Positions 10,315-24,250 of a stretch of DNA of 64,000 nt are shown here, piece by piece. Each line of letters begins with the position of its first letter. Positions within the stretch are counted from its first letter, which is position 1. Source of the stretch: a virus. Location: positions 16,457 through 80,456 of the IMG/VR virus record IMGVR_UViG_3300045921_000463; one strand, 5' to 3'. Below the pieces are notes generated by a model. It made no database searches and was not told the origin of the DNA. It saw nothing but the letters and a program-made list of their open reading frames with translations. A program made the position numbers and the translations under genes.

Positions 10315-10856
10315 TGATCGCTTCTTTTGATCCTGATCTTGCGACTGACAACAGATGGAGTCTTTGCAGAAACCGTTTTGTCGAGGGAACGCCGCGTCTT
10401 GCGCTTTATGTCGGTAGCCTGCGGAACCACGATGAACTCGTCATTTGAGTTCTCAAGATCGAGTTCCTTGATGCGGATGTTGTAGTTGTCGCCCTTGACC
10501 GGCGTTTCCAATAACAGGGTTACATCGGAACCGAGAATATTGGTAACGTCAGTCTTGCTGACGCGAATGCAGCGAAGGAACTGGTCTTCCGTGATTTCGC
10601 CGCCTTTCAACTTGGCGTACAGATCGGCAGGGTTGATGATGCTCGACTCCGCTGCATCGTAGGTAATCTCGTGACCGTTGGTGCGTATGGTTGTACCAAG
10701 CGTCCATTCGTTGGACTGAATCCTGTTCTTGAAGATGTTGCGAATTTCCGTGGAAAGACGATTGAAAGCGTTGGTGTGCTCCTTTTTCAGGCTATGCTGT
10801 TCAAGAAGCTTTACGAGAGCGGTTTTCAATTCGTTCGGAAGGGGCAACCTTGGCAT
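10311..10856 (-). CDS. Hypothetical protein
   Basis: 181-aa ORF, GGAG SD, coupled to thyX. Confidence 0.6.
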   Translation of the reverse strand: MPRLPLPNELKTALVKLLEQHSLKKEHTNAFNRLSTEIRNIFKNRIQSNEWTLGTTIRTNGHEITYDAAESSIINPADLYAKLKGGEITEDQFLRCIRVSKTDVTNILGSDVTLLLETPVKGDNYNIRIKELDLENSNDEFIVVPQATDIKRKTRRSLDKTVSAKTPSVVSRKIRIKRSDQ

Positions 10857-13800
10857 TGCAACGCTCCATGGGTTTTGTAGTGGTTTTATTGTATCGAGAA
10901 TTACTACTGTTGTAAAGTTTTTTCGTCGATAGTGCTGCTAGCTTTTCTTCAACCTCGCGCATTTTTGCAATAGTCTTTTCGTCCTGTGAATTTATATCTC
11001 TTAATTTTTTAAGCTCATCATTAAGAATGTGTCTGATTATATCCGTGTAAGTCCTGTTGCCGGACTCTACAGAGAAGTACTTTGGTTTTACTTCGTAGGT
11101 TTCGGCGAGGTTTCTGCCGATTTCGGCGTCAGCTACAATAGGAACGGTAGGCTTCCATCCGAACCACTTTTCGAGCGGCAGATTTTCCATTGTTTTCTTG
11201 ACAAGCCGCATCGTTTTGGCGGCATACTCTTCCTTGGCAATACAGATGATGGAATCGTGGATGAATCCGCATATCTTGATGTGCTCCCACAACCCTGTAT
11301 TGCGCAGATAGGGAACAAGAAGACCGATTGCCATGAGCCCAAGATCGGAAGCAAAGCTCTGCACTGGCGAGTTGATGCCCTGACGTATTGCCTGCTTCGC
11401 AATGGCCTCGTCGGAACTGTCAACCATCGGAAGATGTCGTATGCGTCCGTTGAAGGCCCGCACATATTTGTGCTTCTTTACCCATTGCTCGACGCGGCTA
11501 TGCCATTCTGCAAGGCGGGGATACGTCTCAAAGAACATTTCTCTAAGAGATGCCGCTTCCTCGTCCGTAAAGTCGATACCGTAATCGGTTTTGGCGTATT
11601 CGCGGAATTTTTTCCACCACATGCCGTATAAAAACCCGAAATTGACGCTGTTTCCAGAGATGGTGACACGTCCGTTTCGTCTGACAACAACATAGGAGGA
11701 CGGCACAGTGACACAGTATACTGTCTGATTGTCAGCAGTCGATACGGACCAGTTATTGCGCTTGAACGGATTACGCTCATTGCTTCTGAAAGAAACCTTG
11801 AATGTCTTGTTTGAGCAAGAAACGAGATTGCTTGTTCTGTTGGACAACGTACAGACAATCTGCACAAAATTGGCGTTCTTCCTTTTAGAAGACGAATAGA
11901 AACACAAGCTTCGTGACGACTTTTTGTAACTATGCCCATCCCAACGGGGCAACTCGTCGAGAAAGGCTTCCTTATCTATTACCGACAGTAGCGACACATC
12001 AAAAGTCTTGTCCGGCATGTATGCCATTATACGCTTTGCGACAGAATCCTTTTTCGGCAAGTAAAAGAAAGTTACTGCCTTTTTGTCAGAATCGAAAAAC
12101 ACACTGGTAGAGTAATCGACTCCAGCGGCGTCGAGCAGTTCACGGCATCTGTTTATTTTACGTTGCTTTGAAAAACCCAAACGGATTGCTCCATTGTTTT
12201 GGTAGCTTCCGTCAGCCTGAACCATTACAAGCAATCTGGTAAACAAGGGATCAGCATCAGTTGAATCTGGATAGTAACCTGCATGGCAGCTTAGTACGCT
12301 GCCAGCCGTATCGTTGTAGGTAAGGTCTTCCGCAGCACGCTCATACGGCATCTTTGTGTACCGACTGAACAAGAGCAGCCTGTGGTTTGGGGTTACGGCA
12401 AGATCGGTACTCTTGTCTTGTATGATTACTACTTTCTGATTTTCGTAGCGATGAAAAGCCAACGGCTTTACAAAGCTGATCACGCCGCTTTCCCACTGCG
12501 CAACTTCAACATCCTGCGGCAACCTGTCGAACCTGACAAATCCTGAGGTTGTCAGGATTTCCGTATCGCCAGTGTAGCATTTTGATTGGAATCTTTTGAG
12601 GTCTTGAACCTCTTTTGAAAGCTTCAAGAATTCTTCAACAGATATGCCCATGATACCCGCCGCAGTCGAGCGGTGAATGTCGCCGCCTTCCTGATAGACC
12701 TGCATCATACGTTCGTCGCCGCTGATCATTGCTGCGATTCGCAACTCGGCCTGCGAAAGGTCAAGCTGAATGTAGACATGGCCTTCCGGGGCTTGAAACG
12801 CCTTTCTGAAAGTCTTTGCCATTTTCCCGCGCTTGGGAAAATTCTGACCATTGGGCGAATCTGAGCAACTACGACCTGTAGTCGTCTTGTGAAGAGAATA
12901 AGAAGGTCTGATACGCCCGTCATAGATGTACTTGTAGAAGCCCGAAATGTATGTATTCAGCATTTTCTGGTTCTTGATGTAGTCAGTAAGCCGCGCAATG
13001 AACGGATGGTCAGCAACATAGTAGGGAAGCGCCGTCTTTGACGAAACGGACGGCTTGCCGGTCTTGGTGTACTGCATTGGCTTCAAGCGCAGACCGTCGG
13101 GATGGTTGTAAAGGTAATCGACAAGGATTGCGTCACGATCAGGTTGCAGACCTACGCCTGTGTCTTTGTGAATGGACTTGATACTTACTGGAATCTGCGA
13201 AAGCAGCCATTCCTTTTCCTTCTCTTGGATGCCTCGCAAGTATTGCTCGAACTCTCTTAGGGCATCCACGTTTATGTAAAAGCCGGTCTGCTCCATGTAG
13301 CAGAAGGCGCGAATAGCGCGCATTACAGTCTTGCGATAGCAAGCCCAAAGTCTCTTGTCGCGCCGCAGTTTCGGCAATAACGTGTTATAGAGACGCAAGG
13401 CAGCGTCTGTATCGCCGCATCCGTAAGCTATCATCTTGTACGGCGGAACAAGGTCCATGCGCGTCTTGGACTGATGCACGGGGTCTTTGTTGAACTCGTC
13501 CGCATACCCCGCCATGGCAGGGACATGAAGTCTTGCAAGATCGTCTAGACTCTTGGAAAGGAGGTTTTCATCAATAAGGTGCGCCATCAGGATGGTATCG
13601 GCATGATAATTGGCAATCTGTATGCCGAGCTTGTAATGAAGCATCAGCCAGTCAAATTTCAGGTTATGGCCGATGACCTTTACTTTCGTATTCTCAAGCA
13701 GCCGTTTCAGTTGGGCAACTATTTTCGGTCTGTAGGTTTCATAGCCGCCCGGAAAGTCGATCACGTTGTGAAAGCGCAGATCGCCTGCATCATAATCTAC

Positions 13801-14529
13801 AGGCACAATGATACTTTCACCCGGCTTGATGCCGAGTTGAACCGTGAGAAGCCTAGTACTCGGATCGAACGGATACAATCCGACACTTTCGACATCGAGG
13901 GAAATGAGGCTTGGCGGGTCTTTCAGCAGATGTTCAAGATCGTAACACCAACGATAATTCACAGCGATCCTTGCGTGTGAGGCTTCGGCCTTGAACCCTC
14001 CTCTTGCAACGCGACCGAGAGTTTCAAGGTCTGCGAGGAAGATGTTCTCGGACTCCGGGTGCTTCCTTGCGAAGAATGGTGAGGTCATGGGAAGAACAGG
14101 AGTAGTTCCGAAGCTTTTGCTGGACTCCAGTACCTGCCCTCGAACCTTGGTTATCTGGACACTGCGCCCGATCACCTGTTGACAGGCTTTGGCACCCATC
14201 GGAACGATAATGAATGGCCGGAGTTCGTTTACAACCTCGACAAAGTGAGGCTCCCATTCCTTTAGAATCGAAGATACTGTCCTGTTGCTTGTGGATTCTT
14301 CGTAGGTAATGGAACGCGCGCACGAGAGAAATATTACGTCCTTTTCTTTCAGGCCGGTATGTTTCAATACGCGGGAACCAAGCCATTCAAGATCGTCCTT
14401 GCGAAGTGGAATGCTCAATGGCTGCGCAGAAATTACCGGATCGAGTACGACCATTACCTTGGCAGTCGTTCTTCCGAGGTGCGGAAGTCGTATTTCTACG
14501 CTGGCGTTTCTGTTGGTTGCCGCACTCAT
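10801..14529 (-). CDS. polA: Family A DNA polymerase with N-terminal UDG-like domain, 3'-5' exonuclease and an intein
   Basis: SLDVES, HNLKFD, YGCGD exo motifs; TTTGR; DLSQAELR motif A; K|intein|SVNFGFLYG motif B; IHDS motif C. Confidence 0.95.
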   Translation of the reverse strand: MSAATNRNASVEIRLPHLGRTTAKVMVVLDPVISAQPLSIPLRKDDLEWLGSRVLKHTGLKEKDVIFLSCARSITYEESTSNRTVSSILKEWEPHFVEVVNELRPFIIVPMGAKACQQVIGRSVQITKVRGQVLESSKSFGTTPVLPMTSPFFARKHPESENIFLADLETLGRVARGGFKAEASHARIAVNYRWCYDLEHLLKDPPSLISLDVESVGLYPFDPSTRLLTVQLGIKPGESIIVPVDYDAGDLRFHNVIDFPGGYETYRPKIVAQLKRLLENTKVKVIGHNLKFDWLMLHYKLGIQIANYHADTILMAHLIDENLLSKSLDDLARLHVPAMAGYADEFNKDPVHQSKTRMDLVPPYKMIAYGCGDTDAALRLYNTLLPKLRRDKRLWACYRKTVMRAIRAFCYMEQTGFYINVDALREFEQYLRGIQEKEKEWLLSQIPVSIKSIHKDTGVGLQPDRDAILVDYLYNHPDGLRLKPMQYTKTGKPSVSSKTALPYYVADHPFIARLTDYIKNQKMLNTYISGFYKYIYDGRIRPSYSLHKTTTGRSCSDSPNGQNFPKRGKMAKTFRKAFQAPEGHVYIQLDLSQAELRIAAMISGDERMMQVYQEGGDIHRSTAAGIMGISVEEFLKLSKEVQDLKRFQSKCYTGDTEILTTSGFVRFDRLPQDVEVAQWESGVISFVKPLAFHRYENQKVVIIQDKSTDLAVTPNHRLLLFSRYTKMPYERAAEDLTYNDTAGSVLSCHAGYYPDSTDADPLFTRLLVMVQADGSYQNNGAIRLGFSKQRKINRCRELLDAAGVDYSTSVFFDSDKKAVTFFYLPKKDSVAKRIMAYMPDKTFDVSLLSVIDKEAFLDELPRWDGHSYKKSSRSLCFYSSSKRKNANFVQIVCTLSNRTSNLVSCSNKTFKVSFRSNERNPFKRNNWSVSTADNQTVYCVTVPSSYVVVRRNGRVTISGNSVNFGFLYGMWWKKFREYAKTDYGIDFTDEEAASLREMFFETYPRLAEWHSRVEQWVKKHKYVRAFNGRIRHLPMVDSSDEAIAKQAIRQGINSPVQSFASDLGLMAIGLLVPYLRNTGLWEHIKICGFIHDSIICIAKEEYAAKTMRLVKKTMENLPLEKWFGWKPTVPIVADAEIGRNLAETYEVKPKYFSVESGNRTYTDIIRHILNDELKKLRDINSQDEKTIAKMREVEEKLAALSTKKLYNSSNSRYNKTTTKPMERCNAKVAPSERIENRSRKAS
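11650..12579 (-). mobile_element. Intein (310 aa) with LAGLIDADG homing endonuclease, in PolA motif B
   Basis: Starts CYTGDTEILT; block B VTPNHRL; LVMVQADGS and LPRWDGH endonuclease motifs; ends VYCVTV..RRNGRVTISGN before Ser. Confidence 0.93.
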
Positions 14530-15917
14530 CGCATGAAATCCAACATGCTGGGGTTGGGTGCAAGCGAGTTTCCTCGGCTTCGGGAAGATCGTGCCTGCGG
14601 CCTTTCCATTATTTCGATTCGCGGATCGTCCGGCTGCAAGAGCGAAAGGTCTATCGGCGAAGTCCTGTTTTCAGGATAGTTGCAGTACCAGTATCCGTCC
14701 TCGCCCTCGCGGCCCTTGAGAATGCCGAACACCCTTACCGATTTCTCGAAAGGATGAGGTCCGAGGTCCAGTCCGAAAACATGCGAAGCGGATTGGCCGA
14801 TAACGTCGGTTTCGCCGATTACCTCGACTCCAAGGTGTGCTATCGGATTGAAGCGCCGCGTCGATCCTGCCTGCTGTTCTTCATTGCGCTTTTGTGCGGC
14901 GCGGCGTCTTTCCTCGGCCTGCCTGTTGAACTGCATGGTGCTGACGATGGGTATTTTCCTGTCGGCAGCGCATTTTTTAAGTTCCTCAGCAACATCGGAT
15001 ATGGTTTCTCTGCGACCCGAGGAACCATATCTCTTTGTCTGCGGTTTTAGCAGGTACCCCGCGTCTATGTAGGAAATGTCGGGCTGGAACTGGTCTATGT
15101 AGGCTTCTACCTGCGGAACGGACCTGTCGAAATTGGCAGTCACCATGAACAAGGGCTGCATTTCGTTCATTTCCGCTATGGAGCGGCGAACAAGGTCTTG
15201 AGACGCGGTTGACACCGTTCCTGTGCGTATCAGGTTCGGGTTTATGCGGGAATGGAGACCTACCATTCGCCGCATCGTGGCACGTCCTTCCATCTCGTTC
15301 GAGACGAAAAGGATGCGATGACCCGCTTTCCATGCGTTATAGCACTGGTATAGAAGCGACCACGATTTTCCACGACCTACCCTGCCTACCCACACGATGT
15401 GATCGCCGGGCTGATAACCGCCGGTAACGTCATCAACCGCATCCCAGCCCGTAGTTACGCCGCGAAGTCCGTGGTAGGTGCTGCTGTCTTCGAACTCTTG
15501 AAGAATCTGCGCAAGAAGCGCGCGGCTGTCCTCGACACCGGAAGAGTCCGGCCCGAACCTGCGGCGTATGCTCGCAATCTCGTCGATGATCGCAAGCATC
15601 GCGGATACGTCGGATTGAGAACCCTTGAAACTTTCTCCGAGTCTGGCATACGGCTCCCGTAACAGGTTATAGAAAGCCCTGCGCTTTGCTTCATCGTAGT
15701 AGTATGAAGATGGCTCGTCAGGGTATGCGTTGATGCTGAAACGCCGCCGAAGCGTGTTGATAGTCGGAAACTTGTTGTGCTGCGCTACATGTACTCTGAC
15801 AAATTCGTAAAGTCGTTTTTCATCGTCTGTCCTGAGAAACTCGGATGGTATGTTCAGGAGACGGGAGCGTGACTTTTCCTTTACGACGGAAAGGACGAGG
15901 CTGATACCGACGCTCAT
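14526..15917 (-). CDS. dnaB: DnaB-like replicative helicase
   Basis: GVTTGW..D..GG, Walker A GRVGRGKS, SNEM, QFNR, KGREG. Confidence 0.88.
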   Translation of the reverse strand: MSVGISLVLSVVKEKSRSRLLNIPSEFLRTDDEKRLYEFVRVHVAQHNKFPTINTLRRRFSINAYPDEPSSYYYDEAKRRAFYNLLREPYARLGESFKGSQSDVSAMLAIIDEIASIRRRFGPDSSGVEDSRALLAQILQEFEDSSTYHGLRGVTTGWDAVDDVTGGYQPGDHIVWVGRVGRGKSWSLLYQCYNAWKAGHRILFVSNEMEGRATMRRMVGLHSRINPNLIRTGTVSTASQDLVRRSIAEMNEMQPLFMVTANFDRSVPQVEAYIDQFQPDISYIDAGYLLKPQTKRYGSSGRRETISDVAEELKKCAADRKIPIVSTMQFNRQAEERRRAAQKRNEEQQAGSTRRFNPIAHLGVEVIGETDVIGQSASHVFGLDLGPHPFEKSVRVFGILKGREGEDGYWYCNYPENRTSPIDLSLLQPDDPRIEIMERPQARSSRSRGNSLAPNPSMLDFMR

Positions 15918-15923
15918 GTGCGC

Positions 15924-16574
15924 TTAAGCGATTACGGTATCGTACAGTATCAGGTCCACAGTAGAGTCGGTGTAGATCGCTTCAAGATGCTTTCGAACAG
16001 TTGGCATATCCGGTTTCTTGGTTGGAAACCGCCAAGCCCCGAAAATTATCCTTCCGTGCAGGGAATGCTTGGCGATGCTGAGAAACTCGTAGAAGTGAGC
16101 CATAGCAGCAGGCTCGGACTTGAAGAATTGCTGCTGATGGCCGGACACTGCATCCGCGATGAAGATGTAATCCGATTCTTCTGCGTATTCGATGATACTT
16201 GGGGTGCCTCGCAGCGTGTTCTTGATCTGCGCAAGAGCAATGGTTGCTGGCGTGGCGTAGAAGACTGTTCCGATGCCGCACAGCAGGAATTCCGTTGCCG
16301 ATCCGCTGAAATCGGATTCATTCGTGATGAAAAGGCTGCGCGGAGCAACTTCGGCATTGACGATGTATTGAAGTTGCTTCTGGATTTCGGAAGAAACAAG
16401 TGATTTCGGAAGATCGCAAACTTTCATGTCTTTGATGGAGCGATTGCCGATCAGGGAACGAAAATAATCCAGCGGAACAACCGCCTTCGAAAGGTCTTCC
16501 ATGAGAACAGTAACCGGCATACTGCTTTCGCGAGGAAATAGCGTGTTATTGGCAGACGGCATGGTTACTCCCAT
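15924..16574 (-). CDS. Hypothetical protein, possibly a degenerate DnaC-like helicase loader
   Basis: Position directly before DnaB; SDYIFIAD resembles a Walker B; no intact Walker A. Confidence 0.4.
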   Translation of the reverse strand: MGVTMPSANNTLFPRESSMPVTVLMEDLSKAVVPLDYFRSLIGNRSIKDMKVCDLPKSLVSSEIQKQLQYIVNAEVAPRSLFITNESDFSGSATEFLLCGIGTVFYATPATIALAQIKNTLRGTPSIIEYAEESDYIFIADAVSGHQQQFFKSEPAAMAHFYEFLSIAKHSLHGRIIFGAWRFPTKKPDMPTVRKHLEAIYTDSTVDLILYDTVIA

Positions 16575-17218
16575 TCAGGTATGTTTTTCGCAGGTTTCGC
16601 TTTGCGAGGTCGCTTTATAGCAGGCTTTTTCTCGGATTGCAAGTCCCGGATTTTTGCTCTCAGCTTCATGATTTCGAATTCGCGTTTTCTGATTTCTTCC
16701 TGAGCGATGCGAACGACCTTGATGAGCGATTCCTGCTTCTCGGCAGCGCGCTCGTTTTCGCGCTTCCGTTCCGGCTCCTCGAAAACGCCATCCTTGAGCC
16801 GCTGGTAGTCGTAGAAGCACGAAACGTACAAGTCCGCGAAACGGAAAAGCCACGCCAGCGCAGGATACTCGGGATACTTCGAAAAACTGCGGAACTGCCG
16901 GGAATGCCGTATCGGCTTCCAGTTGTGAACGACGAAACCGGCAAAGTCCTGTACCGACAAACCCGCATCGCGGAGCGGTACCACGATCAACCGTTTCAGT
17001 TGCGGCACATCCCGTTTCTTCGACATCTGCATTACGGGAGCCGCAGGGAAGGACTCCCTGATCGCGGCACGCCAATAGCTATCGAAGATTCGAACGCCAT
17101 CTTCGATAGTATACCGCTTCGACCACTGGTCCAGCTTTTGCGCTTTCAGCGTCAGCGCGTGCGCTATCGCTTCCTGAGCGGAGGTGAACTGCTTGAGTGT
17201 ATGTGTACGTTTTTTCAT
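16565..17218 (-). CDS. Hypothetical replication-associated protein
   Basis: 217-aa ORF between origin-like region and loader/helicase; coiled C-terminus. Confidence 0.55.
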   Translation of the reverse strand: MKKRTHTLKQFTSAQEAIAHALTLKAQKLDQWSKRYTIEDGVRIFDSYWRAAIRESFPAAPVMQMSKKRDVPQLKRLIVVPLRDAGLSVQDFAGFVVHNWKPIRHSRQFRSFSKYPEYPALAWLFRFADLYVSCFYDYQRLKDGVFEEPERKRENERAAEKQESLIKVVRIAQEEIRKREFEIMKLRAKIRDLQSEKKPAIKRPRKAKPAKNIPEWE

Positions 17219-17224
17219 ACTCTA

Positions 17225-17530
17225 CCCTTGTTTAGATTTTTCTCGATTACACTAATTTCACATTTTTACTCTGATCTTTAGTTTTTAGATTTTTCCCTTT
17301 CTGCCTCGCGCGCGTACGCGCGCGTAGGTTGTATGTTGTTTAATATACCGTAAGGTATATTATATAGAGTCCGGCTGACCGGACTCTGGAGTCCGGCTGA
17401 CCGGACTTAGATTTTTCACAAAAACTGCTTTGTTTTGACCATTTTTTGAAGAATCCAGAATGTATGTTGAAGAATACGAGATATAAGAATTTGACATTTG
17501 AACGAGTCCGGTGGACCGGACTCTGTAAAA
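17225..17530. repeat. Putative replication origin: palindromic iterons plus AT-rich tract
   Basis: GAGTCCGG-N4-CCGGACTY at 17367-17386, 17389-17408 and 17504-17523; palindromes at 17307-17324 and 17341-17362; T-rich 17225-17300. Confidence 0.6.
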
Positions 17531-17535
17531 ATTTG

Positions 17536-18066
17536 TCAACGGTTTTCATCTTTTTCCCTCGCAATAAAGCCGCGAAGTGCCGCTCTGTCGAGCAAAATTT
17601 CATACTTGGAAGCGTAATGGATTGTGGCTTCCATTATAGCTGACATTATGGCTTGTCCGCGTTTTTTGTCGGATAGTAGGGCTTTTTTCAGTTCTTTTTC
17701 CGAACACACGTAATCGTACGGATAACAAGTTATTGAGAAGCCGCGTTTTTCTTGTTTTATCAGACCCATTTGTTTTAGTTTGTTGACAGACTCGTAAAAT
17801 TGTGATCGTCCTACTGCTGGCGCAGGTATGAGGAATTTCAGTTTCGCATAAGGCGTTTTTCCGCGTATGAGGTCTTCATACGTCATTGGTACGGGATCGG
17901 CTGCTCCAAACCTTGAAGTACGATCCCATATCCCCATGATTATCGCCTGCTCTGTCAGAGTCAAATATGGCAATATTGCGAACCGCAGAAACGTGACCGA
18001 ATCAAGCGCGTCATTGCGCAGATAATCGAAGGCTTGACAAACTTTCCGGTATTCGCTATTTATCAT
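17536..18066 (-). CDS. Putative replication initiator (winged-HTH, lambda O N-terminal-like)
   Basis: LTLTEQAIIMGIWDRT..G and GRSQFYESVNKLKQMGLI wHTH pattern; GAGGAG SD; iteron-like repeats immediately downstream. Confidence 0.55.
   Translation of the reverse strand: MINSEYRKVCQAFDYLRNDALDSVTFLRFAILPYLTLTEQAIIMGIWDRTSRFGAADPVPMTYEDLIRGKTPYAKLKFLIPAPAVGRSQFYESVNKLKQMGLIKQEKRGFSITCYPYDYVCSEKELKKALLSDKKRGQAIMSAIMEATIHYASKYEILLDRAALRGFIAREKDENR
18034..18062 (+). promoter_or_regulatory. Antisense sigma70-type promoter inside the 5' end of the initiator gene
   Basis: TTGACA-N17-TATTTA on the plus strand. Confidence 0.5.
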
Positions 18067-18163
18067 GACAGCTCCTCTCGTGGCTTCGTGCATTGAGTCT
18101 CCCTTTGCAGCTCCCTGTATGGGTGCTTCTCTGGTAGTTTTTCAATGCAGGTTTCGCAGCTTG

Positions 18164-18192
18164 AAGTTACGACGAGGGGCGGCTGGAGTCAA
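18164..18192 (-). promoter_or_regulatory. Sigma70-type promoter of the replication operon
   Basis: TTGACT-N17-TAACTT. Confidence 0.65.
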
Positions 18193-18212
18193 GCAGACGG
18201 GCTTCGGCCTTT

Positions 18213-18248
18213 GGGGGGAGAGCAGGCAAGCACTCTCCCCCTTTTTTT
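18213..18248 (+). terminator. Plus-strand intrinsic terminator
   Basis: GGGGGAGAG/CTCTCCCCC stem followed by T7; no U-tract in the minus direction. Confidence 0.7.
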
Positions 18249-18304
18249 ATTTCATGTTTTTGATTGGCGCGCGATCCAGCAGTGCCTTACCGTTTATAAC
18301 AATG

Positions 18305-18691
18305 TTATAGCTCCTTTCTCTTGTCTATCAGACGTATTGGTAGCCCTGATTTGATGGCTTTTCGAACCCTGTTAACCATGTCGTCTGTTTCGCGTCCACC
18401 CGGAGCCGCCAATACCACGTGCGGGTTTGTTTCGCGCAGCATCTGGTTGTTTCTTATGACGCCCGCGGCGTCTCCAAGCTCGGACCACCTGGCAGGGAAC
18501 ACCCGTATTCTGAATCCTGCTTGTCTTGCAATACGGCCAGCCAATCTGTCTGCGCCACGAGCACCGCCGTGTATAAGTTGTATCTGATCGCTTTCAAGAT
18601 CATTACCGACAGCTTCGAAAATCCAGCGACGAAGTTTGTCTTCATCGTGGAAATCCCTGCCGCCAGTAACAAGTAACCGCATTTTGATCAT
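18305..18691 (-). CDS. SLOG (YspA/DUF2493-like) protein
   Basis: LLVTGGRDF, IHGGARGAD, AGVIRNNQML, PGG..T.DM. Confidence 0.85.
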   Translation of the reverse strand: MIKMRLLVTGGRDFHDEDKLRRWIFEAVGNDLESDQIQLIHGGARGADRLAGRIARQAGFRIRVFPARWSELGDAAGVIRNNQMLRETNPHVVLAAPGGRETDDMVNRVRKAIKSGLPIRLIDKRKEL

Positions 18692-18987
18692 TTACAATCT
18701 TTCAAGTAGTAAAAAGATTGTATGCCGAACGATTTGTCTATTTCCAAAAATACCAGAGAAACGGGTTTTGAGGGCAAAGTGGCAGGAACATCGACAGGGG
18801 GCGTTTGAATGTCGTAGTACAGCGGTTTTCTCGGGGGTCTTCTGTATACAGGGGTGGTAGGAAGAAAAGGGCGCGGCGGGTCGTCAAGGATTGGCGGAAA
18901 GGGCTCCCTGACAGGATATGCAACAACAACATCAAGACAGGGAGGCGAGGTCATAAGCAATGCAGCCGCCACAACAAGGTATTTCAC
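18688..18987 (-). CDS. Hypothetical Pro-rich protein with signal-like N-terminus
   Basis: Coupled ORF with overlapping start/stop codons. Confidence 0.45.
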   Translation of the reverse strand: MKYLVVAAALLMTSPPCLDVVVAYPVREPFPPILDDPPRPFLPTTPVYRRPPRKPLYYDIQTPPVDVPATLPSKPVSLVFLEIDKSFGIQSFYYLKDCK

Positions 18988-19259
18988 GTCCAGTCCTTTC
19001 CTGATGCATCGAATTCAGGCAGTTCAAGAACACCGATGCTGATACCGTGCACAAGATCGTCGGCTCTGGCGCAGCCCAGAAAATTGCTCGCACATCTTGC
19101 CATGTCGTTTTTGGAAAGCCCGCAGTAAACACACTTGTAAGTGCTATCGGCAAGAAATGCGCAAAACTTGTCGTTCTCGGCGACAAGGCGCTCGTTTTTT
19201 TCTTTTCGGAACCTGTTGCACAAACCGAACGCCTTGCTTATGCTGTCAAGAAGACGCAT
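18984..19259 (-). CDS. Hypothetical Cys-containing protein
   Basis: Coupled ORF, CVYC motif. Confidence 0.5.
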   Translation of the reverse strand: MRLLDSISKAFGLCNRFRKEKNERLVAENDKFCAFLADSTYKCVYCGLSKNDMARCASNFLGCARADDLVHGISIGVLELPEFDASGKDWT

Positions 19260-19618
19260 CAGAATACTATTCCCTTTTTACGAAGTGCCACAAGACACAT
19301 GCGTTCGTATTCGACGGCCCTTTCGTATGTATCGAACAGCAGGGTTTCATTTTCTATGAGAATTGCCGTCGAAGATGTGATACCAAACCCAAAAATGCTA
19401 CAATGCATGTAAATTTTATGCACGTCATTGGCGTAAGGGCCCTTGAGCCATTTGACCATGTAGCGTTTGGTTTCCTTGTGCATACAGATGTCGGTTACTC
19501 GAAGCATGTCTCCGATTTCAAACATGTCATCGAGAATGGCGTGGGCTGCGCTGTCGCCGCGAGTAAATTGCGCATTGCCTTCCGGCGTAAAAGTAATGAC
19601 TGTGGGGATGTCGATCAT
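19259..19618 (-). CDS. Hypothetical protein
   Basis: GGAG SD; VITFTPEG..R...FDTYERAVEYE pattern. Confidence 0.6.
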   Translation of the reverse strand: MIDIPTVITFTPEGNAQFTRGDSAAHAILDDMFEIGDMLRVTDICMHKETKRYMVKWLKGPYANDVHKIYMHCSIFGFGITSSTAILIENETLLFDTYERAVEYERMCLVALRKKGIVF

Positions 19619-19671
19619 GCTTAGGCTCCGTAGTCGGCTTTTATTATAACCCGTTTATAACAACCGAACAA

Positions 19672-19701
19672 GAAAAAGTCCTCGGCCTTTCGACCGAGGA
19701 C
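19672..19701 (-). terminator. Intrinsic terminator
   Basis: GTCCTCGG/CCGAGGAC stem plus T-tract on the minus strand. Confidence 0.65.
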
Positions 19702-19735
19702 AGTTGCTTCCGTAAGGGAGGACCGGAAGATGTTA

Positions 19736-20473
19736 TCAGGGGGCAACCACGACAATGCCGGGCGAAAGCCACGAATTGCTGCTGTTCGCGTTGGTCGCGG
19801 TGACACGAACCTGAATGGTCCTGCCAAGATCACCGGGCGTCGGCGGCACCGGCGGATCGTCGTTCGGGTCTCCGGGATCGGTTACAACGAGCGCAAACGT
19901 GTTGTTCGTTGCGCCAGCCACTGCAACAGAGTTGCGGTACCACTGGTAGGCAAAGGTCGGAGTCGGGCCAGTCCACGTGCCGTTCGTGACGGAAAGCGTC
20001 TGACCTTCGTTCGGCGTACCGCTGACAGTCGGAGCCGTCAACAGTTGCGGCGGCTGCAACGCATCCTCGATGAAGTCGGAGTTCGCATCGGTCCATGTCG
20101 GCGTGTAGTTGTTGTAGGAAATGCCGAACACGCTTCCGGGGGCTGTGTCTTCCCGCAAATCCTTGATGATCCGGTCAACAAGTTTCACGATGAGTTCGCG
20201 CTTTGCGTTCGCATTGGACCAGTTAAACGAGCGATCAACCAGTTTATTCTCAAACTCGTCCAGTGCAAGTTCAAGGCCGTAGCTGCCATAATACACGTAT
20301 CCGGGCTCGCCGCGAGCGGGAGGGACGGCCACGCCGGTTGCGCTTGCAAGCATGTCAAGGAGAAGCTGCCTCTTGTGAGTCGGGGCAACACCGTTTCTAT
20401 GGAAGGAACGCCACGCATCGAGCTTTGCCAGTGCGTTGGTTACTGTGGCGTGCGTCAGGTCTGCCTGCGGCAT
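19736..20473 (-). CDS. Putative virion protein with C-terminal Ig-like domain
   Basis: APTVSGTP..GQTLSVTNGTWTG...FAYQWYR...DLGRTIQVRVTATN; AAGGA SD. Confidence 0.7.
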   Translation of the reverse strand: MPQADLTHATVTNALAKLDAWRSFHRNGVAPTHKRQLLLDMLASATGVAVPPARGEPGYVYYGSYGLELALDEFENKLVDRSFNWSNANAKRELIVKLVDRIIKDLREDTAPGSVFGISYNNYTPTWTDANSDFIEDALQPPQLLTAPTVSGTPNEGQTLSVTNGTWTGPTPTFAYQWYRNSVAVAGATNNTFALVVTDPGDPNDDPPVPPTPGDLGRTIQVRVTATNANSSNSWLSPGIVVVAP

Positions 20474-20866
20474 TTCATATCCTTTCGGTTCCTGTCGGTT
20501 TTCTTTATCGTAGAATGACCGGATTTGTCTTAAACGGTTCGATACGACATAGTGAAAGCGCGTTTGTACTTTTGCGCGTCTTGCTGACTATATAGAAACA
20601 AAGACACGGGCGCTGCCCGCATAGAAGATGCTTGTAGTCGATTACTCGTTTACTTTATATAGCGATTTACTGTAACTGGCAACTTTTTCGTTTTTGGTTG
20701 AGTCGCTGTAACAGCGTTACAATCTTCTGCGGCTACTTTTGCCACAAATCTTGCATGGCTTGTGTTTTTTTCTTGAATTGCGATTTCTTCGACAAACGCA
20801 TGGGGCAAAAGGATACCCAGATGCAACTCTGGGCACCTTTACAATCTTTGCTTTGGTATGCTGTAG

Positions 20867-22332: not shown

Positions 22333-24144
22333 TCAGTGCAACCTGTCAGGCGCTTTTTTGAGTGATGGGCGTTTTGCCGGATTGACCTTGCGTACATTAT
22401 TGTACGTTTTCGGCTCCGCCGAGGCAATTCTGGCATGTGTCCGGCCCCATTCCTCGATTGCTCTGAAATCCTCTGCAAAGCTTTCTTTCAAGGGTTTCAG
22501 GTACTGTCTTTCTTTCAGAAAGTTTTTTAGCGTAAGAGTCGTGTGTCCTTCCTGATATGCGCGAATCAGGCATTGCTCGACGATGGACTCGATTTCAGCA
22601 CCGACAAGGCCATCCGAGTGCGTAACCATCTGGTTTATTTCGTCTTCGATTATACGCAACTTGCGCTTTTTTGCATGAATACGAACGATTTCCTCGCGCT
22701 CGTCACGGTTAGGACTGTTTACTGCCCAAAGCTCGTCCAGACGCCCTTTTCGCATCAGTTCGGGCGGAAGTCCATGTACGCGATTTGCCGTAAAGACGAT
22801 GAACACCGGACGTTCGCTCTGTTTGCGTTCCTGCATCCACGTCAAAAATGTGCCAAACACGCGCATGGACGTTCCGCTGTCGTTGTTGCCGCCGCGTGCA
22901 GTTCCTGCAAACCCCTTGTCTACCTCATCTACCATAAGCACGAGCGGTGCCATCGCGTCGATGAGTTTCAATGCGCTTCGCATCTTGCTTTCGGATTGTC
23001 CCACATACGAACCGAATACCCTGCCGATGTCGAATCGGATAACAGGAAGATCGAGTTGTGCACCCGCTGCCTTGGCGATCAAGGATTTGCCGGTTCCGGG
23101 CACACCAAGAACAAGAACGCCGCGCGACGGTGTGATGCCTTGAGCGATGGCATTTGCCTCATAGGTCAGGCGGCGTATTTCCATCCATTCCTTGTAGTTC
23201 TGCAAGCCGCCGATCTGATTTATACCGACGGGTTCCTGTAATTCCAGAACCTCGGTTTTTCGCAGAGCTTCTGTCTTGTATTGCCGTATCCAGCAACAAA
23301 CATGGTCGAAACTCACGGGCGTGGGTGTTTCTCCGTTGTGCGATGCATCCTGATGCCAATCGGTAATGGATAGAGCCAAGGCATTTTCGAACGCGGTCTT
23401 GCTCATGCCAAGACCGTTTCGGCATATGGTTCGCTTTTCGTTTTCGCTGAAATCGGGCTGGTGCTCTGGTTCAAGGTTCTCGATCATAAGATCGAACAGC
23501 ATCCTGAGTTCGGTTAGCTTGGGGTATTCATATTCGATAAGGTGCAGAAACGGGGCAATGTTGTCAGGCAGGCTCGCCGTTTCCGGCATGACCATGAACA
23601 GCCGCTGATCGCTGTCATAGGCACGCTGCGCCTGCCGCCTGATCGCGGCTTCCATTTGCGGTTCTTCAAGATAATGATGCGCGTCGATCATGACATAATA
23701 GCAGTCGTCGGGGTATTGTCGAATGTCCCGATCATCGTCCGCGATTTTTTGCAATGCCGTCGCATACGAAATGGCCGACTTGTCTTCCGAATACGGCTTT
23801 ATCGGGTTAAAGGTCTTTTCCTCGCCGTCCATAAGGCTGGCAAGGTCTGAAACGATGTCTTCCTCGTATTGCGCCCAGCCCGTAAGCATGGACCACATAC
23901 GAAATGCGGAACCATTGGACCGTGCAGCAAGATAGATTGTTTCGACCACCCGAAAAACTTCGGTTACGGGGCATCGTATTGCAATTATTCCCATGCTGGC
24001 GCGCGTAGTAATGTCTATCTGCCGCCGCAGCGAATCCATCGAAGTAGATTCATTGTCCATGCAGGATACCGTGGTGTTTTCGTTTCGGTTTCCCGAAATA
24101 TATACGTGGCACACCTGAAAGAAAAGAGTAAAACGCGGGGCCAA
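22333..24144 (-). CDS. Ycf46-like AAA+ ATPase (true start probably near 24060)
   Basis: IGGL..YKEW, GVPGTGKSLIAKA, YVGQSE, VDEVDKGF, TAN..LPPELMRKGRLDE. Confidence 0.9.
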   Translation of the reverse strand: MAPRFTLFFQVCHVYISGNRNENTTVSCMDNESTSMDSLRRQIDITTRASMGIIAIRCPVTEVFRVVETIYLAARSNGSAFRMWSMLTGWAQYEEDIVSDLASLMDGEEKTFNPIKPYSEDKSAISYATALQKIADDDRDIRQYPDDCYYVMIDAHHYLEEPQMEAAIRRQAQRAYDSDQRLFMVMPETASLPDNIAPFLHLIEYEYPKLTELRMLFDLMIENLEPEHQPDFSENEKRTICRNGLGMSKTAFENALALSITDWHQDASHNGETPTPVSFDHVCCWIRQYKTEALRKTEVLELQEPVGINQIGGLQNYKEWMEIRRLTYEANAIAQGITPSRGVLVLGVPGTGKSLIAKAAGAQLDLPVIRFDIGRVFGSYVGQSESKMRSALKLIDAMAPLVLMVDEVDKGFAGTARGGNNDSGTSMRVFGTFLTWMQERKQSERPVFIVFTANRVHGLPPELMRKGRLDELWAVNSPNRDEREEIVRIHAKKRKLRIIEDEINQMVTHSDGLVGAEIESIVEQCLIRAYQEGHTTLTLKNFLKERQYLKPLKESFAEDFRAIEEWGRTHARIASAEPKTYNNVRKVNPAKRPSLKKAPDRLH

Positions 24145-24222
24145 TGACTAGGTAAGGTCGTCAGCCCCGCGTCATTTTTTCCAGAAGGAAACCAACAGGT
24201 ATCCTTTTCAACCACAACTCAA

Positions 24223-24250
24223 ATAATACACATTCAATAATTTTTGTCAA
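24223..24250 (-). promoter_or_regulatory. Strong sigma70-type promoter
   Basis: TTGACA-N16-TATTAT in an AT-rich gap upstream of the AAA ATPase. Confidence 0.7.

Follow-up and report, generated by a model that had tools for sequence, protein, structure and literature searches.

Does the promoter-like site that reads out of the first replication-module gene of this phage start an antisense RNA, and would such an RNA hold the module in check? The window analyzed here, a stretch of 64,000 nucleotides, is part of the 80,456-bp IMG/VR phage contig IMGVR_UViG_3300045921_000463, which is 85% complete. The sequencing runs that contain it are DNA runs from hot springs and microbial mats, probably its source, and no RNA run is among those listed. 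Its closest named phages are ~94-kb Rhodobacter capsulatus siphophages (RcKickapoo-like), with a DnaB that is 42% identical; these phages do not carry the 176-aa winged-helix gene that concerns us here. Along the minus strand, a SLOG/YspA-like gene is followed by a 238-nt gap, the 176-aa gene, an origin-like region, two unknown genes, DnaB (14526-15917) and a family-A DNA polymerase. The features of the locus are as follows.

18305-18691, minus: SLOG/YspA-like upstream gene (PF10686, 1.3e-14; phrog_289)
18247-18303, minus: dCTP-deaminase-like remnant of 18 codons without an ATG, its stop codon overlapping the A tract
18214-18248, plus: intrinsic-terminator-like hairpin with a 9-bp GC stem and a 10-nt loop (arms GGGGGAGAG at 18214-18222 and CTCTCCCCC at 18233-18241), followed by T7 at 18242-18248
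18192-18187 and 18169-18164, minus: sense promoter P2, TTGACT-N17-TAACTT, facing Pas
18067-18157, minus: sense 5' UTR of ~91 nt, with its probable start near G18157; fully overlapped by the predicted antisense RNA
18077-18072, minus: Shine-Dalgarno sequence (SD) GAGGAG, within the sense 5' UTR
18068-18248, plus: predicted non-coding antisense RNA of ~175-181 nt, with its probable start at A18068 or A18070 and its end in the T run
18057-18062, plus: -10-like hexamer TATTTA of Pas, 17 nt past the -35 hexamer, complement of codons 2-4 of the 176-aa gene
18034-18039, plus: -35 hexamer TTGACA of the antisense promoter Pas, complement of codons Cys10-Gln11 (TGT CAA)
17536-18066, minus: 176-aa winged-helix gene, ATG at 18066-18064, heading the replication module
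17225-17535: origin-like region directly downstream of the 176-aa gene, with three GAGTCCGG..CCGGACTC palindromes, an AT-rich palindrome ATACCT..CGGTAT and the GC alternating palindrome CGCGCGCG

An earlier note on this DNA had described a plus-strand TTGACA-N17-TATTTA promoter just inside the 176-aa gene, a minus-strand TTGACT-N17-TAACTT promoter facing it, and a plus-only terminator about 180 nt past the first promoter, in an otherwise all-minus genome. The plus-strand promoter motif can be read directly in the sequence, and the facing promoter and the hairpin with its T7 run are present at the positions listed. The all-minus organization holds wherever it can be tested, with minus-strand ORFs far outscoring their plus-strand shadows in comparison with a related phage.

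This relative, G001 (IMGVR_UViG_3300001605_000015; contig piece L004), is a complete, syntenic genome of 90,183 bp that ends in direct terminal repeats, and it shares ~65-70% (~66%) nucleotide identity with the window phage. The comparative evidence comes from these two phages, and each conservation argument below has n = 2 and p ~0.02. Searches of the region and of the 176-aa protein against named phages with blastn and tblastn gave no match. IMG/VR scans with the 176-aa protein, its alignments, DnaB, combined DnaB and polymerase alignments and a DNA pattern of the origin palindromes returned only G001 or very distant polymerases, and no further relative was matched in metagenome and genome scans. 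The two phages differ between the SLOG gene and the hairpin, where G001 keeps an intact dCTP-deaminase-like (DCD) gene (184 aa; L004 3207-3761; PF22769, 7.7e-19) that has been deleted in the window; the deletion has spared the hairpin and the A/T tract. Another difference lies in the DNA polymerase gene (10801-14529, minus), which contains a ~320-aa insertion at 11647-12579 that is absent from the 919-aa orthologue in G001. The insertion starts with CYTGDTEILT and ends with ...ISGN, and it looks like an intein; PHROG matches of this segment alone are to ribonucleotide reductase, thymidylate synthase and PhoH families. One mat run contains a variant strain with ~22 substitutions in 3.3 kb (window 16500-19800), among them a change at 18046/18047 that gives Arg7Gln in the 176-aa protein. 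The contigs of this strain are interrupted at the hairpin, between 18217 and 18316, and do not cover the terminator. Four of the substitutions (18046, 18047, 18108 and 18123) fall between the two promoters and none in the hexamers, an outcome expected by chance in ~2 of 3 cases and hence without weight.

We compared the antisense promoter site in the two phages. Its -10 hexamer in the window is weak, with 3 of 6 consensus matches and an A, not a T, at position 6. A generic consensus scan listed neither Pas, P2 nor the hairpin, the 10-nt loop of which exceeds the limit of that scan, and promoter-like and terminator-like matches genome-wide are at the level of shuffled sequence. The window genome's sequence alone therefore proves little. 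A looser pattern, TTGACA-N16-18-TAnnn[AT], defined after the site had been seen, has a single match on the antisense strand of the 80-kb window genome, namely Pas, and two on the antisense strand of G001, one of which is at the orthologous start codon. This G001 site reads TTGACA-N17-TATAAA, overlaps the orthologous ATG and has the same spacing as the site in the window. With an E. coli-type matrix, it ranks 4th of 90,143 antisense positions in G001, and Pas ranks 122nd of 80,416 in the window genome. A candidate antisense promoter with its -35 hexamer in the target gene and its -10 hexamer at the start codon or ribosome binding site is thus found in both phages, as a match at the sequence level.

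How much of this agreement could come from the coding sequence? TGTCAA is also present in G001, and TGT and CAA are the minor Cys and Gln codons in both genomes (usage 0.36 x 0.38 in the window genome, 0.34 x 0.43 in G001). We simulated the region with a fixed protein sequence, codons drawn from genome usage and a random spacer between SD and ATG. A site as good as that of G001 arose in 2.6% of these null simulations, the pattern arose in 2.2%, and the matrix score of the window site was reached in 13%. The -10 hexamers fall on non-homologous sequence, codons 2-4 in one phage and the SD-ATG spacer in the other, and the 17-nt spacing is kept in both, as would be expected from selection for a promoter, not from shared descent. 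The last base of the -10 hexamer is A in both antisense sites and T in all eight conserved sense promoters (8/8). The A-ending -10 hexamer is the main weakness of Pas.

The sense promoters give a clearer picture. Four TTGACA-type, sigma-70-like promoters are conserved at orthologous intergenic places, all with a TAnnnT -10 hexamer (window 24250, 18192, 8548 and 1499; G001 24370, 32314, 40207 and 47159), and at the level of sequence they show that the phages use the host sigma-70-type polymerase. The P2 orthologue in G001, TTGACA-N18-TAAACT, ranks 4th of 90,143 positions on the gene strand with the E. coli-type matrix, and this conservation supports P2 as a probable real promoter. In G001 the module runs from the hairpin through the sense promoter, a ~106-nt leader and AGGAG plus ATG to the opposite-strand TTGACA-N17-TATAAA. 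Antisense promoter, antisense-oriented terminator and facing sense promoter are all kept, in intergenic sequence that otherwise cannot be aligned between the phages. The sense leader is weakly structured, with z scores of -1.75 in the window and +1.98 in G001. The region contains a long imperfect inverted repeat (18071-18100 / 18150-18180), and in the predicted fold of read-through transcripts from upstream, the SD pairs with CCCCUCGUCG, located inside the P2 spacer. An 11-nt box, GCYRCGAARCC, lies at the predicted P2 start in both phages, and G001 has another copy in the loop of its hairpin (window 18150-18160, minus; the two G001 copies are at L004 3784-3794 and 3872-3882). It is not specific to this region, and two further copies lie elsewhere in the genomes. 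Further upstream, the conserved promoter P1 (TTGACA-N16-TATTAT; window 24120-24250, minus; L008 4370-4490) is followed by a conserved leader and a strong hairpin that carries a U run on the sense strand and is preceded by an A run. This whole unit is kept in G001 and had no meaningful match in Rfam; it may be a ~90-nt sRNA or an attenuator in front of the AAA ATPase operon.

The hairpin between P2 and the upstream operon has a clear polarity in the window. On the minus strand it is followed by CAAAGGCC, which contains no U, and it is therefore terminator-like on the plus strand only. In our own terminator scan its dG of -18.9 is among the four strongest on the plus strand. The corresponding hairpin in G001 (GGGGGAGC/GCTCCCCC) lies directly past the stop codon of the upstream dcd gene. 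Together with the adjoining UUAAUUUUUU it has a dG of -24.3, and no other antisense-oriented terminator candidate in that 90-kb genome is stronger. There, the distance from antisense promoter to terminator is ~205 nt, with the two in the right order. A single compensatory pair (A-U versus C-G) distinguishes the stems of the two phages. Both retain the antisense-side T tract, and only G001 has a U-rich tail (UCUUGUUAC) on the sense side. Other clean intergenic sense terminators of the window genome have no A tract upstream. A candidate antisense-oriented intrinsic terminator that would end a short, discrete RNA is thus present in both the window and G001.

Folding of the predicted RNA is strand-specific. 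In the window, the 183-nt span has an antisense minimum free energy of -83.1 kcal/mol (z -4.7 to -5.2) and a sense value of -60.1 (z -2.2); in G001, the 211-nt span gives -94.3 kcal/mol (z -6.5) and -63.2 (z -2.9), respectively. Both antisense values fall outside the range of a background of 110 windows, which has a mean antisense z of -0.43, a standard deviation of 1.24 and a minimum of -3.8. The predicted structures of the two RNAs are unlike each other. The MAFFT alignment of the two intergenic regions was unreliable; covariation support consists of the one pair in the terminator stem. Rfam cmscan of window 16000-20500 and L004 3600-4200 gave no match at E up to 5, so that the Rfam and covariation check proposed in the earlier note did not add backing beyond that single compensatory pair. 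The possibility of a small protein encoded on the antisense RNA was considered and rejected, as there is no SD and no peptide common to both phages. The predicted transcripts overlap by ~90 nt in the window phage and by ~96 nt in G001. Complementarity of the RNA to the GAGGAG SD and the whole 5' UTR, another claim of the note, stands for the window phage; in G001 the predicted RNA starts at the edge of the SD, and masking of the SD is therefore not conserved.

What would such an RNA control? The start codon of the 176-aa gene is backed by the aligned N-termini of 10 homologues, and the family is small, with 13 relatives among 1.84 billion proteins; some of the homologues are encoded on contigs of 98-99 kb. 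The protein has a weak match to the TrmB wHTH and none in PHROG. An AF2 model built with 11 homologues (pLDDT 85.7) contains only a generic winged-helix domain; the single-sequence model (pLDDT 34) was useless. Structure searches returned generic winged-helix matches only (Z up to 8.1), Foldseek against the PDB gave nothing below E 0.49 for the model, and a profile search of PDB sequences with the family gave no match. The gene precedes the two unknown genes, DnaB and the polymerase, and adjoins origin-like palindromes, of which G001 keeps the ATACCT..CGGTAT and CGCGCGCGAGG elements (L004 4590-4700). Position and conserved palindromes fit a putative origin-binding or initiator protein. P2 is directed toward the origin-like region and Pas away from it.

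We compared the arrangement to characterized antisense units. By analogy, the closest analogue is pO/oop of phage lambda, not the ctRNA of repABC replicons. In the lambda sequence, which we checked, TTGAGT-N17-CATAAT lies antisense to gene O, with the -10 hexamer on the ATG of O and the -35 hexamer inside O. The oop RNA is short and non-coding and ends in a hairpin and a T run, as predicted for the window RNA, and its promoter is convergent with the one that serves the replication genes and origin transcription. Such convergence is also found here: P2 faces Pas and would read through the 176-aa gene to the palindromes at 17225-17535. In lambda, pO lowers the pR transcription that reaches the origin, via interference between converging polymerases (Olszewski et al. 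2014; PMC3985674). There are clear differences. The predicted RNA has no sequence or Rfam similarity to oop and measures ~180-205 nt, whereas oop is 77 nt long. oop overlaps the 3' end of cII, whereas the RNA predicted here covers the promoter and 5' UTR of its own target and ends at the stop codon of dcd (G001) or of the remnant (window), with no overlap of an upstream gene's 3' end of the oop kind. The 176-aa target is not a Phage_rep_O homologue, and the window phage shows no lysogeny genes. In phage P22, the sar RNA of immI is a short antisense RNA whose promoter lies inside the ant leader, convergent with the ant promoter, and which is complementary to the ribosome binding site. Its antisense promoter is convergent with that of the target, as predicted here, but sar is ~69 nt long, controls an antirepressor and not a replication-module gene, and has no sequence similarity to our RNA. 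The plasmid ctRNAs (R1 CopA, pMV158 RNAII, pT181 RNAI and the repABC ctRNA) are likewise cis-antisense to the leader of a replication gene and have their own constitutive-type promoter and intrinsic terminator. The RNA predicted here is, in contrast, two to three times longer and also crosses the target promoter, its target is a putative initiator, and the phage has no plasmid maintenance genes.

The earlier note had gone on to suggest a plasmid-type counter-transcript that sets copy number in a plasmid-like or carrier state. The layout does resemble ctRNA units, with a promoter in the rep leader or gene and an intrinsic terminator, and the absence of an integrase from the window, which the note had pointed out, was confirmed: none was matched in either genome. 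Searches also revealed no resolvase and no ParA-type ATPase (PF13614) in the window contig (85% complete) or in G001, and the covariance models ctRNA_pGA1, ctRNA_pND324, ctRNA_pT181, ctRNA_p42d, CopA and RNAI of Rfam had no match in the window or L004 at E up to 5. With its direct terminal repeats and its own DnaB, polymerase and primase, G001 resembles large virulent siphophages, and an RNA of ~180 nt exceeds the typical ctRNA length. We thus regard a plasmid-like or carrier state as most improbable; of the note's antisense unit, the part that faces the target's promoter gained comparative evidence from G001, and membership in a ctRNA family fell away. Control in cis by the sense strand or by DNA, with no antisense RNA involved, is very unlikely in our judgment. 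Here, either the inverted repeat would sequester the SD in read-through transcripts, through the predicted pairing with CCCCUCGUCG, or the winged-helix protein would repress P2 via the GCYRCGAARCC boxes. Autorepression is common among winged-helix initiators, and the box coincides with the predicted P2 +1 in both phages, with the second G001 copy in the hairpin loop. Against this, the sense leader is weakly structured by its z scores in both phages, both genomes contain the box at other places as well, and cis-control leaves the opposite-strand terminator and the conserved antisense promoter unexplained.

A more serious alternative, possible although on balance unlikely, is that no functional antisense RNA exists. 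The hairpin would then mark the boundary of the upstream operon (as a terminator, an insulator or a 3'-end stabilizer), the A tract the context of a stop codon, and the promoter-like site a chance product of Cys-Gln codons next to an AT-rich start. The position of the G001 hairpin directly after the dcd stop, with a moderately U-rich sense tail (UCUUGUUAC), makes action on the sense strand possible there. In the window, however, the sense side is devoid of U while the antisense T7 is intact, and the other clean intergenic sense terminators do without an upstream A tract. Chance would account for antisense -10 hexamers that lack the key T at position 6, for a window site that the standard matrix places only at rank 122 and that 13% of null simulations equal in score, and for the shuffle-level frequency of promoter-like and terminator-like matches genome-wide. 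It accounts less well for G001, in which the 4th-ranked antisense promoter site and the strongest antisense terminator candidate follow each other in the right order, ~205 nt apart, at the orthologous place, and for the strand asymmetry of folding in both phages.

The reading that we favor, and hold to be somewhat more probable than all others together, is a lambda pO/oop-like cis-antisense unit that would damp the promoter and the leader of the gene that heads the replication module. The analysis shows that the elements are present in the sequence, that one diverged relative keeps them and that folding favors one strand; that the RNA is made, which mechanism would dominate and that the target is an initiator are inferences. 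Host sigma-70 RNA polymerase would start at Pas, within the first codons of the winged-helix gene, transcribe ~180 nt against the 5' UTR and across P2, and stop at the plus-strand terminator just short of the upstream operon. The terminator would thereby shield the upstream SLOG/YspA-like gene from antisense transcription. One route of action would be transcriptional interference between the face-to-face promoters, the -35 hexamers of which span ~160 bp and the transcripts of which overlap by ~90 nt. In a second route, at least in the window phage, the RNA would pair with the whole leader including the SD. In G001 the SD lies at the edge of the predicted RNA, and thus the possibility common to both phages is interference, or else decay of the leader triggered by duplex formation. 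The outcome may be to limit or to time expression of the first replication-module gene, together with P2 read-through into the origin-like region.

A bolder version of this scheme, which we think quite unlikely, would combine Pas, P2 and the GCYRCGAARCC box into a conserved switch of two convergent promoters, in a phage that is both virulent and thermophilic. By binding to the boxes, the winged-helix protein would determine whether Pas or P2 fires. The antisense unit would act as a timer and end transcription of the replication module into the adjacent origin, and a lambda-style dual-promoter logic would have evolved independently and without lysogeny.

Antisense damping is already known from lambda and from plasmids, and the RNA predicted here would be of a familiar type that indicates no new lifestyle. 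If the RNA is made, the locus would be a compact natural convergent-promoter module of ~215 bp, and antisense damping of the first replication gene would extend to large virulent phages of hot-spring mats, which have no homologous initiator or RNA in common with lambda.
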